In this document: one piece after another, positions 44,193 through 58,647 of the stretch
Numbering within the stretch: the stretch's first letter is position 1
Layout: every line of letters starts with the position of its first letter
Position numbers and translations under genes: made by a program
Assembly (NCBI GenBank): GCA_003483065.1
Contig: DMWY01000001.1
Location: 72,606 to 136,605, forward strand
DNA from: Candidatus Moraniibacteriota bacterium
GTDB taxonomy: Bacteria > Patescibacteriota > Minisyncoccia > Moranbacterales > UBA2206
Direction of reading: 5' to 3'
DNA length: 64,000 bases
The notes under the pieces: model-generated
Seen by the model: only the letters and a program-made list of their open reading frames with translations
The model's database searches: none
Told to the model about the DNA's origin: nothing

Positions 44193-45029
44193 TTAATCTA
44201 GCGGACTTTTAATTTTTCTCAAGGCTGGATTAGTCACTTTGGTATAAATTTGTGTTGTTCTAATGTTAGCATGCCCCAAGAGCTCTTGTACATAGCGCAC
44301 GTCTGTTCCATTTTCGAGTAAGTGTGTCGCAAAACTATGTCGAAGTGAATGAAATGTGGCTTCTTTTTTTATCCCCGCTTTTTTCATGGCATTTTCAAAA
44401 ACTTTTTGCGCTGTCCTCTCGGTTAATTTCCCCTGCCTCATCGGCAGACAAGCTCCGCGTTCACTGGCAAAAAAATAATCATTAGAATTTTTATTGGCAA
44501 TTAATTTTTCTACATCCGCCACGAGCTTTTCCGGAAAAACCGTAATGCGATCTTTGTTGCCTTTAGCTCCTTTGATATGAATGATAAGTTCCGCCAAATT
44601 TATATCCTTGATTTTCAAATTAATAATCTCACTCACGCGTAGCCCTCCAGAATATGCCAACGCCACCATTAATTTGTGTTTTTCATTGGAAATTTCCGCC
44701 AATATTTTTCCAATTTCATCTCGAGACAAAACGATCGGTAATTTACTTGGCGTTTTGGCGAAATGAATGTCAATTTTTCCTCTATATTTCAAAACATTCC
44801 AACAGAAAAAGTTTATCGCTTGCAAATTTTGATTAGTAGTTTGTGACGACTTCCCATCATCAATTTTGGACAATATATATCGCTTGATAAAATCAATGTC
44901 TACTTTTCCAAAATTATCTTTTTTGGCTTTTAGATAATTTTCAACACAAGCCGAATATGCTTTCACAGTTTTTGGACTATATTTTCTCAATCTCAACTCA
45001 TCTTCTAATTTTTTCAAATAGACGTCCAT
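44193..45029 (-). CDS. tyrosine recombinase (XerC/XerD-like integrase)
   Basis: Full catalytic set R...K...HxxR...H...Y (GGLRVSE, GAKGNKDR, HSLRHSFATH, LGHANI, TQIYTKV). 278 aa. Confidence 0.8.
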   Translation of the reverse strand: MDVYLKKLEDELRLRKYSPKTVKAYSACVENYLKAKKDNFGKVDIDFIKRYILSKIDDGKSSQTTNQNLQAINFFCWNVLKYRGKIDIHFAKTPSKLPIVLSRDEIGKILAEISNEKHKLMVALAYSGGLRVSEIINLKIKDINLAELIIHIKGAKGNKDRITVFPEKLVADVEKLIANKNSNDYFFASERGACLPMRQGKLTERTAQKVFENAMKKAGIKKEATFHSLRHSFATHLLENGTDVRYVQELLGHANIRTTQIYTKVTNPALRKIKSPLD

Positions 45030-45237
45030 TGATTTTTTTGCTATAATAAAATTGTAATAAAATTATACACAATATTCGCAAACTTAGCAATATTATGTAC
45101 ACTATACGAAAACACTTCGCATATAAAAGAGTTAGCTGAAATATTTTTTTGTCTTTGGTGGTGATTTAAAATTTTAGTGCATTGAACAAAGACGAAAATT
45201 TGATTTTTTATTTATTTTAAGAGGGGTAAAAAGGAAT

Positions 45238-45822
45238 ATGTTTCAATATATAGTTTTAATCGGAGCGGTCGTGCAGTTGGTTGGTATATATGTTTATATT
45301 AGAGCAACTGTCCGTGGCGAAACAAAACCAAATAGAGTCACTTGGCTGATGTGGTCTGTGGCGCCATTGATTGGATCCGTCGCAGCTTTTTCTGACGGTG
45401 TTCGTTGGGCAGCGCTTCCAGTCTTCATGTCTGGTTTTGCGCCACTTCTTGTTTTCATTGCTTCTTTTGTAAATCCCAAATCATTTTGGAAGCTGGAAAA
45501 ATTTGATTATATTTGTGGAGCTTGTTCAATTTTGGCATTAGTTCTTTGGGGGATTACAAAAGAACCATTGATTGCGATTATTTTTTCAATCGCCAGTGAT
45601 GGATTTGCGGCAGTGCCAACTATTATTAAATCTTGGAAGCACCCAGATTCTGAATCTGTTGAAGCTTACACCACTGGATTGTTCAACTCATTGACGAGTT
45701 TTTTTGCACTGAGAACATTTGGTATTTCAGAACTGGCTTTTCCAATATATTTAGTTTTGGTAAATTCATCGTTGATTGCCGCCGTCTACAAAGGACGATT
45801 GAAAAAAATAATCGCAAAATAA
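45238..45822 (+). CDS. polytopic membrane protein, unknown function
   Basis: ~6 hydrophobic helices. Confidence 0.45.
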   Translation: MFQYIVLIGAVVQLVGIYVYIRATVRGETKPNRVTWLMWSVAPLIGSVAAFSDGVRWAALPVFMSGFAPLLVFIASFVNPKSFWKLEKFDYICGACSILALVLWGITKEPLIAIIFSIASDGFAAVPTIIKSWKHPDSESVEAYTTGLFNSLTSFFALRTFGISELAFPIYLVLVNSSLIAAVYKGRLKKIIAK

Positions 45823-45940
45823 GGAGTTTTGAATTTTGGGCATTCACCCCTGACCCCTCTGCCCAAAATCCAAAACAAAAATCAAATTTTCTATTAGAAT
45901 AAGCAAAGTTTGTGCTAATAAAATAGAAGACAAAAAAATA

Positions 45941-46030
45941 CATCAGCTAACACGGCATATCTGGTTCAGAAATTTTGCACATATAATAAAATAAGGAAGG
46001 CAAAACTTCTTCTCCCAAATTGCGCTGTGG
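45941..46030. repeat. ~95-bp structured intergenic repeat, copy 1
   Basis: CATCAGCTAACACGGCATATCTGGTTCAGAAATTTTGC-loop(AAGGAAGG)-GCAAAACTTCTTCTCCCAAAT. Copies at 46920-47010 and 47780-47922 show compensatory changes in the hairpin arms. Confidence 0.6.
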
Positions 46031-46099
46031 CAAGACAAAGTTTAGTGATATAATTAAGTCAGGTGGAAATTTGAAGTTTTAGCCAATAAATATGGGCGC

Positions 46100-46310
46100 A
46101 ACTTCAGATGATGCCGAAACGATATGCAAAATGTCTCTCCCTACGGTCGTTCCATTTTGCATATCGTGCGCGCCTGACGGACGCTGACATGCTCTGTGCC
46201 GTCCCTTCGGGAGCGACACATCGCATATCAGCGCCTATCCAAAATTTCCCTTCGAAAACCCTTCGGGATTTTCTCGGAAAACTTCGGATCAGGCGCGCAC
46301 GTTAAACGAA
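46100..46310. ncRNA. candidate structured RNA of unknown class (GC-rich)
   Basis: Perfect 14-bp hairpin CGATATGCAAAATG/CATTTTGCATATCG (46120-46166). An 11-bp long-range helix TGCGCGCCTGA (46167-46177) / TCAGGCGCGCA (46289-46299) encloses several CCC-TTCG-GGA tetraloop hairpins. ~55% GC in a ~34% GC background. Strand undetermined. Confidence 0.35.
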
Positions 46311-46440
46311 ATTTTGTTCAAAAATATTTTTTCATTTTATATTTGAGCCCTTTTGAAATTTTTTGGGAAAGAAAAAACCGCCTTGGAAAACCTTGGCGGA
46401 AGCAGTTGGTCTGCTCAGTCCATGTACGAAATTAGTTGGG

Positions 46441-46773
46441 TTAAAGATTGACACGCCAGCACCTACCTAAGTAATCAGAAAATTCTTGGGAAGTCATATC
46501 TCCGTCATGAATGTCAACATTGATACATAAAGTATCACTATAATTAAAGTACTGGTATCCAACAACCTCAAAACGCATAAACACATTGGCATGCCCGCCA
46601 GTAGCTTTATCTTTTTCTCCATCAATAACTTCAATAATAGTGCCAATTGGCAATATTACCGATGAGGAGGGTAAGTCGAGAAAGTACTCAAAAGAGTCGT
46701 CGACATCTTTCCAAAAGGCATGATTTTTTTCTTCGTTAACTGAATTATTGTTGATACAAAGAACAAATTTCAT
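46441..46773 (-). CDS. hypothetical acidic cytoplasmic protein (110 aa)
   Basis: Start reassigned to the ATG at 46773, preceded by AGGAGG. No recognisable domain. Confidence 0.45.
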   Translation of the reverse strand: MKFVLCINNNSVNEEKNHAFWKDVDDSFEYFLDLPSSSVILPIGTIIEVIDGEKDKATGGHANVFMRFEVVGYQYFNYSDTLCINVDIHDGDMTSQEFSDYLGRCWRVNL

Positions 46774-46919
46774 CTTCCTTCCTCCTGTTGTTGGATTTAA
46801 TGTGCTATTTGACGGGAAATTAGCGTTCAAAGTAGTATAGCAGAAAACGCTTATCCTGTCAAGACCACGAAAAAAAATTCAAAAGGGCTTTTTAATAAGG
46901 AGTATATTTTTGAACAAGA

Positions 46920-47010
46920 CATCGTTTAACAAAGAATATCTGGTTCAAAAAATTTGCCGCAGTTAAAACTAAAAGGAGGGCAAATTTTTCTCTCCCAAAT
47001 CCCGCACTTT
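46920..47010. repeat. ~95-bp structured intergenic repeat, copy 2
   Basis: CATCGTTTAACAAAGAATATCTGGTTCAAAAAATTTGCC-loop(AAGGAGGG)-GGCAAATTTTTCTCTCCCAAAT. Confidence 0.6.
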
Positions 47011-47232
47011 TCCGTTTCGCTGTAATTTAGAGTATAATGAGATTAATAAATCAATAGGAATGTTAAGGTTTTGTGCTTAAAAACCAAAGTGCAGGACTTC
47101 AGATATTCTTAAGCGTTATGCGAAAAAACTAAAAATTTACTCTCTATTTTGAAAAGAATTTTTGGCAATTTTGCTGGTCGATAACTTGGTGTATAATATA
47201 AATAAGTTTTAATAAATTAATTTAAAGTAATT

Positions 47233-47733
47233 ATGAATCAAAAAAACATTATTGCAATTTTAGGAGTTGCTGTAGTAATTTTGCTCGGCACAACTATATA
47301 TTTTGCAACAATAAGCAATGTTAGTCAGCCAGCGCCAGTACCTGTGGTAAAACAGCCAGCAACTCCAGCTCCTATAGCGCAAACGCCAGCTACACCAGCA
47401 AATCAACAACCAGTTGCAACACAACCAACAACGACTAGTCAAAAAGTAGAAAGTAATGAAGAAATTGCAAAAAGAGTTTTGGGTTTTATTGAAGGAAAAA
47501 ATACTATCAAAATTGAAAAAACAGACGCGGATCATATTGTTGGAACAAAATGTGAAGAACCGAGCGCAGCAGACAAAGCCGCTGGCAGAGATATACCTTC
47601 CTGTGGTTATTTTTATTTAGCCAAAACAAATGGGAACTGGCAAAAAGTGCTTGAGGGAAATGGTGTAATAAAATGTAATTTATTGAAACAGTATAATTTT
47701 ACTGGTAGCATGTTAAATGGTTGTATAAATTAA
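47233..47733 (+). CDS. secreted/anchored protein with Pro/Ala/Thr/Gln-rich linker and 4-Cys C-terminal domain
   Basis: N-terminal TM/signal, PAPVPVVKQPATPAPIAQTPATPANQQP linker, C-terminal domain with four Cys. Confidence 0.5.
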   Translation: MNQKNIIAILGVAVVILLGTTIYFATISNVSQPAPVPVVKQPATPAPIAQTPATPANQQPVATQPTTTSQKVESNEEIAKRVLGFIEGKNTIKIEKTDADHIVGTKCEEPSAADKAAGRDIPSCGYFYLAKTNGNWQKVLEGNGVIKCNLLKQYNFTGSMLNGCIN

Positions 47734-47779
47734 GATTGCCAAAAATTCTTTATTTTCTAGGAAAGGAAATTTTTAGTTT

Positions 47780-47922
47780 CATCGCCTAACAAGTTGTATC
47801 AGGTTCCAGAAATTTGCCTCAATTATATTATTAAGGAGTGCAAATTTCTTCCACCCAAATTTTTGCCTTCCTTTTCTTTTTATATTACAATAAGGAAAGA
47901 AGGCAAAAACTTCTGATACAAC
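47780..47922. repeat. ~95-bp structured intergenic repeat, copy 3 (composite, bounded by a 10-bp terminal inverted repeat)
   Basis: GTTGTATCAG (47793-47802) ... CTGATACAAC (47913-47922). The interior carries one forward copy of the element plus an inverted partial copy (TTTTGCCTTCCTT / AAGGAAAGAAGGCAAAA). Confidence 0.55.
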
Positions 47923-48043
47923 TAACGTTATGTGAAATAGCCAGAAATTTCTTTTTTATTTTTTAAAATTTTTTTGGCAACTTATTTTCACGGTCGGCAT
48001 AATTTATAATACACAGGAATAATTATATTTAACTAAAATTTCT

Positions 48044-48274
48044 ATGAAAAAAATCTTGTGGATTATTGTATTGTTAATTACTATTATAATCATTGGCGTA
48101 GCTACATATTCAAAAATGCCACATTATAAAAAAATATGTTCCGATTACACCAAAAGAGAAGAATGCGTAAAAAATAGCCGTTGCGATTGGCCCGGCTCTT
48201 CTTGTGCGGTACCAGGAAAAAATTGTGGATTCACTTATGACCCTGAGAAGGATAGGTGCCTGCCAAAAAAATAA
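48044..48274 (+). CDS. small secreted Cys-rich protein (76 aa, 6 Cys)
   Basis: N-terminal TM/signal, then CSDYTKREECVKNSRCDWPGSSCAVPGKNCGFTYDPEKDRC. Confidence 0.45.
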   Translation: MKKILWIIVLLITIIIIGVATYSKMPHYKKICSDYTKREECVKNSRCDWPGSSCAVPGKNCGFTYDPEKDRCLPKK

Positions 48275-48520
48275 TAAGGGCTTTAGGTGACGGGTAAACA
48301 TCATGGTCCTCTTTCAGATAGTATTAATAAAAAGGCTCCGGTGTTCAAAGATGGACAGATACCTTGAGGTAGTGTTATATTTATTATCGGTGCTTTTTAT
48401 TTTTGGATAAGCTTATAAATTCATATCTAGTATGTTATGTTGAGATGTCGTGCAATGACGCCTTGATTTTTAGGACATCTGTAGTATACTTGAATCATAA
48501 ACAATTAGGCACTAAGCATT

Positions 48521-48841
48521 ATGATTCCAATTGCATTCTTGCGACAATTTCGCTTAGGTGATTATGCCATTTTTGATTTCGCCGTGTCACTCTTAGGATT
48601 CTATCTGCTCTCCCCTCTTTTATCAAAAATATTTTTGAAACTTCGAATTGATATCCCGCGTCAAAATTGGCTTTATTTAACTTTACCAATTGGCGTTGCC
48701 ACCCATTTGATTTTTGGAAAGATTACCCCTCTAACGCGAGATTTTATCGATATCCAAGGTCACTACATTGTGAAAATAGTGATTATAGCCTTACTACTAA
48801 TTGGACTAAATGATATTAAGATAGTTAAGAAAAAAATATGA
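48521..48841 (+). CDS. membrane protein (3 TM), unknown function
   Basis: Hydrophobic helices only. Confidence 0.4.
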   Translation: MIPIAFLRQFRLGDYAIFDFAVSLLGFYLLSPLLSKIFLKLRIDIPRQNWLYLTLPIGVATHLIFGKITPLTRDFIDIQGHYIVKIVIIALLLIGLNDIKIVKKKI

Positions 48842-49050
48842 ACAAAACAAAAGTGCAAGGAATCGCTATGATTGCTTTGGCGGTTATTCTAATTGCTATT
48901 ATAATCGCCTACACTACTATTTTTTCTGTCTTTGGTGTTAAATCTGGCGGATCAATATTGATGCTTCTTCCACTGATAATAATCGCCATCCTTTTGATTG
49001 TTGGCTTGTCTTTTCTTTTTCGCGCTGGAATTAGAAAAATGAAAAACTAA
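48838..49050 (+). CDS. small two-TM membrane protein
   Basis: 70 aa with two hydrophobic helices. Overlaps the previous gene by 4 nt (ATGA). Confidence 0.4.
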   Translation: MNKTKVQGIAMIALAVILIAIIIAYTTIFSVFGVKSGGSILMLLPLIIIAILLIVGLSFLFRAGIRKMKN

Positions 49051-58205: not shown

Positions 58206-58296
58206 TTTAATCAAATTTAATCAGTGGTGGAAAAATAATAAACTCACATTAGTATATTCGTATAAAATTCGTAATTGGTAAAGATTTTGAGCATAT

Positions 58297-58647
58297 ATCA
58301 AGGCAAATCTATAAGCCGGATTTTGTCGAGAATGATCATTTATCTAGTCCCGATATTACTATCGGGATCAAGCGGTACTTCTTATTCTTACTAGTGTAGA
58401 ACAAGACACGACCTTGCATCCAGGTAAGGATTTAGCCGTTTCACCCCAATATTACTATTGGATTCGCCCCGCCCTTTATAAATAAAAAGCTGGGTGCTCA
58501 ACCTTTCGGTTTCGCACGTCTCTGCTCGCACCTCTTAGATTGCTCTAGATGGGTGTTACCCACTACCCTTTCCGCCTCTTCGGCGGATAAATGTCCGGAC
58601 TTTCCTCTCTGACTTTACGTCAGGGCGATCATTCAATTTGCCTTGAT
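58297..58647 (-). ncRNA. rnpB: RNase P RNA (bacterial type A)
   Basis: The minus strand reads GAGGAAAGTCCGGAC (P4 5' strand), GGGTAACACCC, AGAGCAA and the 3' P4 strand ACAAAATCCGGCTTATAG. P1 pairs 5' CAAGGCAAAT with 3' ATTTGCCTTG. ~351 nt, ORF-free and GC-enriched. Confidence 0.8.

Follow-up and report, generated by a model that had tools for sequence, protein, structure and literature searches.

In the superintegron of Vibrio cholerae (integrase IntIA, insertion site attIA and attC sites of the V. cholerae repeat (VCR) type), the integrase gene is divergent from attI, a promoter points into the array, and mostly single, co-oriented open reading frames (ORFs) of largely unknown function are carried in cassettes that each end in an imperfect palindrome of R'', L'', L' and R' boxes with an invariant AAC/GTT pair. 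The bases following GTT belong to the next cassette, the bottom strand of the sites folds better, the repeats are homogeneous within and between arrays, and the platform stays fixed while its content turns over. The same properties, the promoter in the form of a promoter-like motif, recur at a locus within a 64,000-nucleotide (nt) stretch of a Candidatus Moraniibacteriota genome (assembly GCA_003483065.1, contig DMWY01000001.1, forward-strand positions 72,606 to 136,605; hereafter the window, with positions counted from its first letter), where a tyrosine recombinase gene adjoins an array of small genes. From sequence comparison we consider this locus probably a sedentary chromosomal integron-like gene-capture platform of Candidatus Moranbacteria (Patescibacteria, or candidate phyla radiation, CPR), and the putative platform comprises the recombinase, an attI-like insertion site and five swappable cassettes.

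The locus departs from chromosomal integrons in several respects. Its recombinase family lacks the IntI-specific domain and measures ~271 amino acids (aa) as against ~320 for integron integrases; its sites are longer (median 152 nt) and end in a three-way structure that is conserved among them; the unpaired spacer (1 versus 3-4 nt) and an occasional bulge fall on the L'-R' arm and not near L''; cassette ends are complementary over ~25 nt with a fixed 2x2 mismatch, not over 6-7 nt; some evidence points to exchange at R'' in addition to R'; and the host phylum is Patescibacteria. In protein size and domain make-up the recombinase matches the enzymes of the XerA/dif, XerS/difSL and XerH/difH systems, and its conserved adjacent site recalls the xerS-difSL arrangement. 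Those systems use one duplex site of ~28-31 bp for chromosome dimer resolution, whereas at the window locus a variable array of several cassettes starts from the site, whose partners are structured palindromes of variable sequence.

The CTX phage, like other integrative mobile elements exploiting Xer (IMEX), is integrated by XerCD, a Xer-type enzyme without an IntI domain, which joins a folded single-stranded DNA (ssDNA) hairpin to a duplex chromosomal site by exchange of one strand in a reaction completed by replication, so the chemistry proposed below would not need that domain. The pdif modules of Acinetobacter plasmids are discrete gene modules that lie between recombinase-related sites of inverse orientation and in which a Xer-type enzyme has been implicated; they rely on constant 28-bp XerC/XerD duplex sites, whereas here the arms vary from module to module and complementarity alone is kept. 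IMEX are whole phages or islands with dif-like sequences, and differ in having no single-gene cassette arrays and no dedicated attI beside the recombinase. A standard integron pipeline could report the window locus at most as a cluster of attC sites lacking integrases (CALIN), because the recombinase would fail the IntI-domain profile (PMC9668308, PMC9024848); unlike a CALIN, the array adjoins a dedicated, conserved recombinase and attI.

The recombinase and its attI-like site

The window recombinase retains all of the catalytic residues R131, K156, H227, R230, H253 and Y262 and ends in IKSPLD, of which IKSPL is invariant in the family. It barely passes NF040815 (XerA; a model titled 'tyrosine recombinase/integron integrase'), at 221 bits against a cutoff of 220, and scores 219 bits against TIGR02249 (integron integrase), under the cutoff of 265. 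The TIGR02249 match falls into two pieces, residues 5-180 aligning with model positions 2-180 and residues 198-278 with positions 248-328, and a single-sequence alignment to VchIntIA omits VchIntIA residues 183-236, which are the extra domain. When the family profile is compared to solved structures, VchIntIA ranks at the top with 187 bits in two stretches, followed by XerA structures with 180 and 173 bits and by XerD with 109. On these alignments the recombinase reads as an IntI-like enzyme without the domain held to define IntI. At least 7505 proteins match the family at E <= 1e-20; the best 120 of these are 266-298 aa long (all but one 266-280) and are annotated as XerD, tyrosine recombinase or phage integrase, never as integron integrase. 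A scan of viral contigs returned distant recombinases at 30-42% identity and no family member above 42%. The window enzyme has 278 aa against a typical family length of 271, and a 7-aa insert, ACLPMRQ (residues 194-200, positions 44430-44450 on the minus strand), that is missing from most relatives and has a similar counterpart in the related locus L011, falls exactly where integron integrases hold their extra domain.

A conserved attI-like site lies between the recombinase and the array. In relatives it reads TATACGAA-AACAC-TTCG(C/T)ATAT-AAACGA-GTT and lies ~100 nt from the recombinase start codon; the right arm together with GTT (TTCGCATAT-AAACGA-GTT) is conserved in 82 distinct variants, and the left arm covaries with the right arm in one subgroup. 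The site contains an 8-5-8 palindrome, and in the window its right half TTCGCATA ends at 45123 and GTT starts at 45131, 8 nt beyond the palindrome. It can be likened to the 3' half of an attC (ACTTC, L', spacer, GTT) with a minimal partner arm. Conservation stops precisely at GTT: loci L091 and L109 are 100% identical over 1501 nt covering the recombinase and attI, ending at GTT, the pairs L096/L120 and L090/L105 likewise diverge right after GTT, and six contigs sharing one attI bear four different first cassettes. Natural variation thus places cassette insertion between G and TT beside the recombinase gene, as at an integron attI, and we infer a crossover between G45131 and T45132. Two promoter-like sites overlap back to back beside attI, one (Pc-like) directed into the array and the other towards the recombinase; a TGCTATAAT-type motif occupies the place of the Pc-like site in related loci and a TAAATTATACA motif of the recombinase site is conserved in relatives. 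Several cassettes hold promoter-like motifs of their own, which are consensus matches only.

Palindromic sites and cassette boundaries

Each ~81-95-nt repeat of the array makes up the 5' half of an imperfect palindrome that runs to 120-200 nt. Read on the plus strand, a site opens with CATC, then an R'' box of four variable bases plus AAC, a single A and an L'' arm of 11-12 nt, most often CGGCATATCTGG; its middle holds a conserved hairpin A, the motif CTC.CCCAAAT and a variable hairpin B; and it closes with L', in some sites carrying one bulged G, then A(A/T)AC, GTT plus four variable bases (R') and GAAAT. The complement of L'' lies 60-300 nt to its 3' side, the variable terminal structure spans ~35 to 300 nt, and the median site length is that given above. 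We located sites by a repeat profile combined with an explicit search for the L' arm. A naive scan for AAC, a stem and GTT was set aside, as AT-rich DNA produced too much noise, with as many matches elsewhere and on the other strand as in the array. Three matches in the 64-kb window, all in the array (E = 4e-17 to 4e-19), come from a profile whose sequences are mostly those of other genomes, and Rfam, at gathering thresholds and at E <= 1, holds no family for the repeats or for a GC-rich piece of the array, returning only chance-level microRNA and small nucleolar RNA matches.

The boxes of these sites are held together by pairing. With the terminal structure cut out there are 44 distinct sites, and AAC and GTT are invariant in all 44, so that the R''-L''...L'-R' palindrome with invariant AAC/GTT that marks attC is found here. 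Across the 11 L-box pairs of these sites 99.6% of positions are paired, a figure that is partly by construction; because the sites were picked for a complementary arm, the evidence rests on compensatory changes (nine pairs changed on both sides and none on one side only) and on the chance rate, which we estimate at ~3e-4 per site for an 11/11 arm match within 370 nt, while most sites have one. Hairpin A has a 9-bp stem in which seven pairs show compensatory changes, and its loop always holds TATA and AAGGAG-like motifs; it might bind an accessory protein, act as a signal for ribosomes or transcription, or belong to the synapse. Among the terminal-structure modules only a few types occur, with 93-98% identity across unrelated cassettes. 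Folded as DNA, attC3 reaches z = -7.5 on the top and -6.8 on the bottom strand; in 38/47 sites the bottom strand folds better, by 1.9 kcal/mol, and G is enriched on it, both properties reported for canonical attC (PMC5027507). The spacer is 3-4 nt on the L'-R' arm and 1 nt on the other arm in all sites, and a bulged G occurs on the L'-R' arm in 11/47. As an observation apart, in L099, ~4.5-4.8 kb beyond attI, the hairpin A loop (stem ACGAGCTAAA/TTTAGCTCGT) of one attC-like site holds an 89-codon ORF, which lies inside the recombination site and not before it; an empty mini gene unit precedes.

Cassette boundaries follow the rule known from integrons. The four bases after GTT are the reverse complement of the R'' of the next site in 13/24 neighbouring pairs and of the site's own R'' in 1/24, and a site's own R'' and R' are only 60% paired; this match to the next cassette is a hallmark of integron cassettes. 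Complementarity extends further into the unit, as the first ~25 nt of a cassette mirror its last ~25 nt at a mean of 15.6/25 positions against 8.9 +/- 3.3 for mismatched partners, and 18/24 cassettes reach at least 15/25. A fixed 2x2 mismatch in these ends (GAAAT versus ACATC) is always present, and the variant core of the window's mini-cassette covaries too, GATATGC occurring with GCATATC. Cassettes 3 and 4 of the window share a 58-nt 5' leader (AATTTTTTTGGCAA, at 47114-47171 and 47926-47983) with a -35-like TTGGCA, and the same leader opens unrelated cassettes in L035, L044, L058, L061 and L082, so cassette ends form families independent of the ORF.

Strict definition yielded 48 cassettes, mostly of 420-1500 bp; seven of the 48 are minis without an ORF. 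In 38 cassettes the longest ORF is co-oriented with the array, running away from the recombinase, and in four it is reversed. Three quarters of the cassette proteins (30/40) have no Pfam family and the remaining ten are all different: a Na/Ca exchanger, a Dam methylase, VTT/DedA, DUF218, DUF4116, a metallo-beta-lactamase fold, GT2, HEPN, PsbP-like and SRPBCC. The reversed ORF of window cassette 2 has a promoter-like site of its own, which resembles the reversed, self-expressed cassettes of known integrons.

In the mechanism that we propose, a recombinase related to integron integrases and archaeal XerA would be transcribed divergently from the attI-like site, and promoter-poor, mostly single-gene cassettes would enter at attI between G and TT. 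By analogy with integrons, one cassette strand, probably the bottom one, would fold as ssDNA into an R box, an asymmetric unpaired spacer, an L box and a branched end, and the recombinase may bind the R and L boxes by recognizing fold rather than sequence. Single-strand exchange would then occur between AA and C of the AAC/GTT core and be resolved by replication, as in integrons and the CTX phage. Cassettes would be excised as circles, in which the hairpin would be lengthened past the R box by ~18 bp through the cassette's own ends, and would be re-inserted mostly at attI, where newly arrived genes could be read from the promoter beside attI or from promoters of their own.

Cassette turnover at a fixed locus

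We compared the window with 80 genome loci (L007-L086, one genome per species scanned, recombinases 58-95% identical) and with a second, independent set of 37 metagenome loci retrieved by the attI motif alone. The taxonomically informative loci are named as Patescibacteria, among others Moran-, Wolfe-, Lipton-, Portnoy-, Falkow- and Shapirobacteria; some bear only the name 'bacterium', and a batch of automated names among the 80 points to other phyla. All 75 repeat-profile matches in 39 genome loci lie upstream of the recombinase on the opposite strand, that is, on the array side, and all 38 matches in the 37 metagenome loci share that side and strand, giving a repeat-recombinase linkage of fixed geometry in 113/113 matches. 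In 28 loci lepA is the neighbour of the recombinase, LepA identity ranging from 53% to 100%; LepA, the 106-aa membrane protein p106, MurJ and DUF4012 are syntenic; and L008, L016, L029 and L049 keep the distal flank of two small membrane genes, murJ and DUF4012. No other species has the window's four cassette genes, and cassette 1 is seen in same-strain contigs only. A mini-cassette like 1b adjoins attI and the recombinase in many relatives.

Locus L002, from another sample and with an identical recombinase, has cassette 1 in common with the window and then different cassettes. Loci L099 and L123 are identical over 4.4 kb, then have one cassette replaced, and are 99.6% identical thereafter; the replacement starts immediately downstream of GTTATATGAAATA and stops immediately ahead of AAC-GTTGTAC. 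The cassette that opens the arrays of L091 and L102 is found in L110 at a distance of 2.7 kb into the array, and a gene unit that is 93% identical in L092 and L118 occupies different array positions beside recombinase genes that are 72% identical. Contigs also tend to end here: within 500 nt, 30/80 of the genome loci end on the array side against 1/80 on the lepA side, and strain heterogeneity right after attI would produce such systematic assembly breaks.

Two features of the wider set concern the platform as a whole. Some metagenome-assembled genomes (MAGs) hold two recombinase and array loci (L029 and L036 in UBA4824; L014 and L067 in CAYTIK01), and recombinase and LepA identity are discordant in a few loci (93% versus 62% in L009; 75% versus 93% in L038). 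These hint that the platform is occasionally transferred or duplicated.

A first-pass annotation of the window from its letters alone had described a gene-poor, repeat-rich segment with a cassette-like character beside a complete XerC/D-like recombinase of 278 aa, and much of that description holds. The recombinase is complete and carries the Pfam domains Phage_integrase and Phage_int_SAM_4, coding sequence occupies 1707/3491 nt (49%) of 45030-48520, all of the claimed small ORFs are present, as are the three structured repeats, and the region is indeed an array of units bounded by attC-like sites and adjoining a recombinase. The proposed GC-rich structured RNA exists as a strongly folding piece, but as DNA, and belongs to a mini-cassette without an ORF that has its own attC-like site: within a GC-rich stretch at 46079-46307, the part at 46150-46315 folds at -41 to -48 kcal/mol, and the attC portion (46226-46307) gives z = -3.1 and -3.8. 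An integron-like array had been considered and dropped there on two grounds. The missing IntI-specific insertion is confirmed by the gap at TIGR02249 positions 180-248 and by the VchIntIA alignment; the supposed lack of attC cores was mistaken, since each repeat opens with CATC-NNNN-AAC and L'' and is followed downstream by L' and A(A/T)AC-GTT-NNNN, and with attC-type R'', L'', L' and R' boxes present that reason for dropping the integron reading falls. Its suggested synteny check came out in two parts, the locus being kept in place from lepA and the recombinase to murJ while the content between them is wholly different in relatives; a fixed platform with replaced content is the pattern of a sedentary chromosomal integron. 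Two small membrane genes following the array are conserved core genes in relatives and lie outside the variable segment, which truly ends at 48433-48439.

The window holds four intact attC-like sites and one decayed terminal site. The final core and the sequence that follows align with the array end of L029, where an intact attC precedes them; in the window, no profile match marks an intact terminal attC after the 76-aa ORF, and 48290-48439 has no stable fold (z = -0.2 and -0.5). Coordinates of these and neighbouring features are collected in the table below, which includes an RNase P RNA gene unrelated to the array.

Table. Features of the recombinase locus and its surroundings in the window.
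Feature	Position	Strand	Details
Recombinase gene	44193-45029	-	278 aa, IntI/XerA-like, divergent from array
Pc-like promoter-like site into array	45019-45047	+	TAGACG-17-TATAAT, upstream TG; consensus match only
Promoter-like site for recombinase	45062-45090	-	TTGCTA-17-TATAAT; consensus match only
attI-like site	45103-45133	+	TATACGAA-AACAC-TTCGCATA-TAAAAGA-GTT
Cassette 1	45132-46121	+	ORF 45238-45822 (+), 194-aa membrane protein
Cassette 1 terminal inverted repeats	45131-45155 / 45927-45951
Structured repeat copies	45941-46021, 46920-47000, 47780-47860
Hairpin A followed by CTC.CCCAAAT	45965-46015, 46944-46995, 47804-47855
attC1	45941-46127	+	CATC; R'' AGCTAAC 45945-45951; L'' 45953-45964; L' 46105-46116
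attC1 R'	46121-46127	+	variant core GATATGC
Cassette 1b	46122-46301	+	ORF-less, GC-rich; mini hairpin 46121-46165
attC1b	46219-46307	+	GC-rich; R'' GCATATC 46223-46229; L'' 46231-46240; L' 46286-46296; R' GTTAAAC 46301-46307
Cassette 2	46302-47115	+	reversed ORF 46441-46830 (-), 129 aa (110 from second ATG), acidic
Cassette 2 terminal inverted repeats	46301-46327 / 46904-46930
Promoter-like site of reversed ORF	46834-46862	-	TTGACA-17-TATACT with TG; near-consensus
attC2	46920-47121	+	R'' GTTTAAC 46924-46930; L'' 46932-46943; L' 47100-47110; R' GTTATGC 47115-47121
Cassette 3	47116-47927	+	ORF 47233-47733 (+), 166 aa, signal peptide, Pro-rich
Cassette 3 terminal inverted repeats	47115-47144 / 47761-47790
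attC3	47780-47933	+	R'' GCCTAAC 47784-47790; L'' 47792-47803; L' 47913-47923; R' GTTATGT 47927-47933
Cassette 4	47928-48439	+	terminal; ORF 48044-48274 (+), 76 aa, Cys-rich; attC decayed
Final core GTTATGT	48433-48439		distal array end
Two small membrane-protein genes	48521-49050	+	106 and 70 aa; fixed distal flank outside array
RNase P RNA, bacterial class A	58296-58644	-	128 bits, above gathering score

Alternative explanations and significance

Several points weigh against the integron-like interpretation. What our comparisons show is the site anatomy with its covariation, the rule at cassette boundaries, the break at GTT, and cassettes that are replaced, relocated and shared across lineages; the recombination itself we infer. 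The IntI-specific domain around patch III is absent from the window recombinase, and according to Messier and Roy (2001), as cited in PMC9668308, that domain is necessary for integron recombination. [quoted passage not shown] Because both the domain and the placement of extrahelical bases depart from the integron pattern, the function is integron-like and we do not class the system as a member of the integrons proper. Part of the L-box pairing was also built in by the way sites were chosen.

The breakpoints add a further difficulty. In two comparisons, the window against L002 and L092 against L118, the gene unit is common and the downstream attC is not, with the break falling between AAC and the following A; a cassette in the strict form of an ORF plus its own attC does not predict such breaks. 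In the pairs L099/L123 and L011/L013, unit and downstream site are kept together. Because two pairs break after AAC and two others keep unit and site, exchange at R'' as well as R' is suggested by these alignments; as speculation, an enzyme without the strand-selecting domain might allow exchange at R''. An attC module that travels with the downstream gene, with crossover at R'' only, was considered and rejected as the sole mode, because attI conservation ends and variation starts at GTT and because the latter two pairs keep unit and module together.

The most serious rival is a housekeeping Xer enzyme for dimer resolution with an adjacent dif, at which IMEX have piled up to form the cassettes. 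The recombinase is about as conserved as LepA and stands next to lepA in the 28 loci mentioned, source annotations and pipelines name the family XerD, and these facts, which also count against our interpretation, leave room for a housekeeping role; the enzyme is moreover the sole tyrosine recombinase within the window, the 8-5-8 palindrome of the attI region resembles a Xer core site, and Xer enzymes can integrate folded ssDNA, as the CTX phage illustrates. The boundary between shared and variable sequence nevertheless falls at GTT, 8 nt past the palindrome and not in its centre, and what is inserted is one gene at a time, each with a structured site whose sequence varies, and not an element with a dif-like duplex site. 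Two such loci occur in some MAGs (L029 with L036 and L014 with L067), the family profile finds its closest solved relative in an integron integrase and places XerD far behind, and GC skew does not switch at the locus, which is weak evidence: skew is flattened within the segment because its genes mostly point opposite to their surroundings, and has the same sign on both array sides. We consider this rival unlikely; it is also compatible with the integron-like reading, since one enzyme could do both.

Shuffling of a hypervariable island by homologous recombination among repetitive extragenic palindrome (REP)-like or terminator-like repeats, with the recombinase incidental, could draw on the near-identity of module types across unrelated cassettes for homology, and hairpin A could be an RNA element; yet breaks fall exactly at GTT or AAC even where flanking modules are dissimilar, the next-cassette rule holds, attI is conserved, and repeat and recombinase are linked in fixed geometry throughout, which makes this account very improbable. 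An inversion switch of the shufflon or phase-variation kind, in which the recombinase would flip genes relative to promoters, is prompted by the 25-nt inverted repeats that bound each gene unit and by the one reversed ORF among the window's four. Repeat arms differ in sequence between units, however, no unit is seen in both orientations, co-oriented ORFs far outnumber reversed ones (38 to 4), a promoter-like site of its own precedes the window's reversed ORF, and strain variation consists of replacement and insertion instead of inversion; we give this reading next to no weight.

Just as poorly placed is an origin as a prophage remnant or integrated mobile element with a module for toxin/bacteriocin-immunity or host interaction, much as the first-pass annotation had suggested. 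Small secreted Cys-rich proteins do stand beside an acidic cytoplasmic one, and a recombinase lies at one end. No direct attachment-site duplication was found flanking the segment, and GC content is the same as in the surroundings. The module itself finds no backing either: the four window cassette proteins have no credible match in Pfam, NCBIfam, PADLOC or PHROGs. Different species keep the recombinase and its position but not the genes, and the viral-contig scan placed no member of the recombinase family above its 42% identity level.

Returning to the integron-like platform, its place in the literature is easily stated. The IntI domain is a requirement in surveys based on IntegronFinder (PMC9668308), and surveys with that requirement report integrons overwhelmingly from Proteobacteria, Gammaproteobacteria accounting for 93% of the complete ones (PMC9024848); the IntegronFinder 2.0 survey leaves Patescibacteria unmentioned (PMC9024848). 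In open-access papers and bioRxiv we found no description of integron or integron-like arrays in CPR/Patescibacteria. A broader reading, to which we assign slightly less than an even chance, is that Patescibacteria hold a large integron lineage of their own in which the domain was never present or was lost, and which escaped notice because integron finders require that domain. Its sites would be read differently from canonical attC, with unpaired bases on the other arm, a hairpin lengthened by the cassette's own ends and a conserved accessory hairpin; crossovers might occur at both R' and R'', with independent reassortment of gene units and attC modules, and the platforms would be a main route by which these reduced genomes gain genes and a living model for the origin of integrons from Xer-type systems. 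Arrays were checked in only ~120 loci, against at least 7505 recombinase matches.

An integron-like platform of this kind would mean that the extra IntI domain is not needed for structure-guided cassette capture, which bears on how folded DNA is read and how a strand is chosen, and the evolution of integrons from Xer-like recombinases could be tested on what would be their sister or ancestral form. The system is compact, with an enzyme of 271-278 aa, an attI of ~40 nt and sites of ~150 nt, and its long terminal inverted repeats and ORF-less mini-cassettes would be new clues to how cassettes are made. For Patescibacteria it would explain a recurrent assembly break in their genomes and show, as a concrete and widespread mechanism, how ultra-small bacteria that depend on hosts gain genes and vary between strains.

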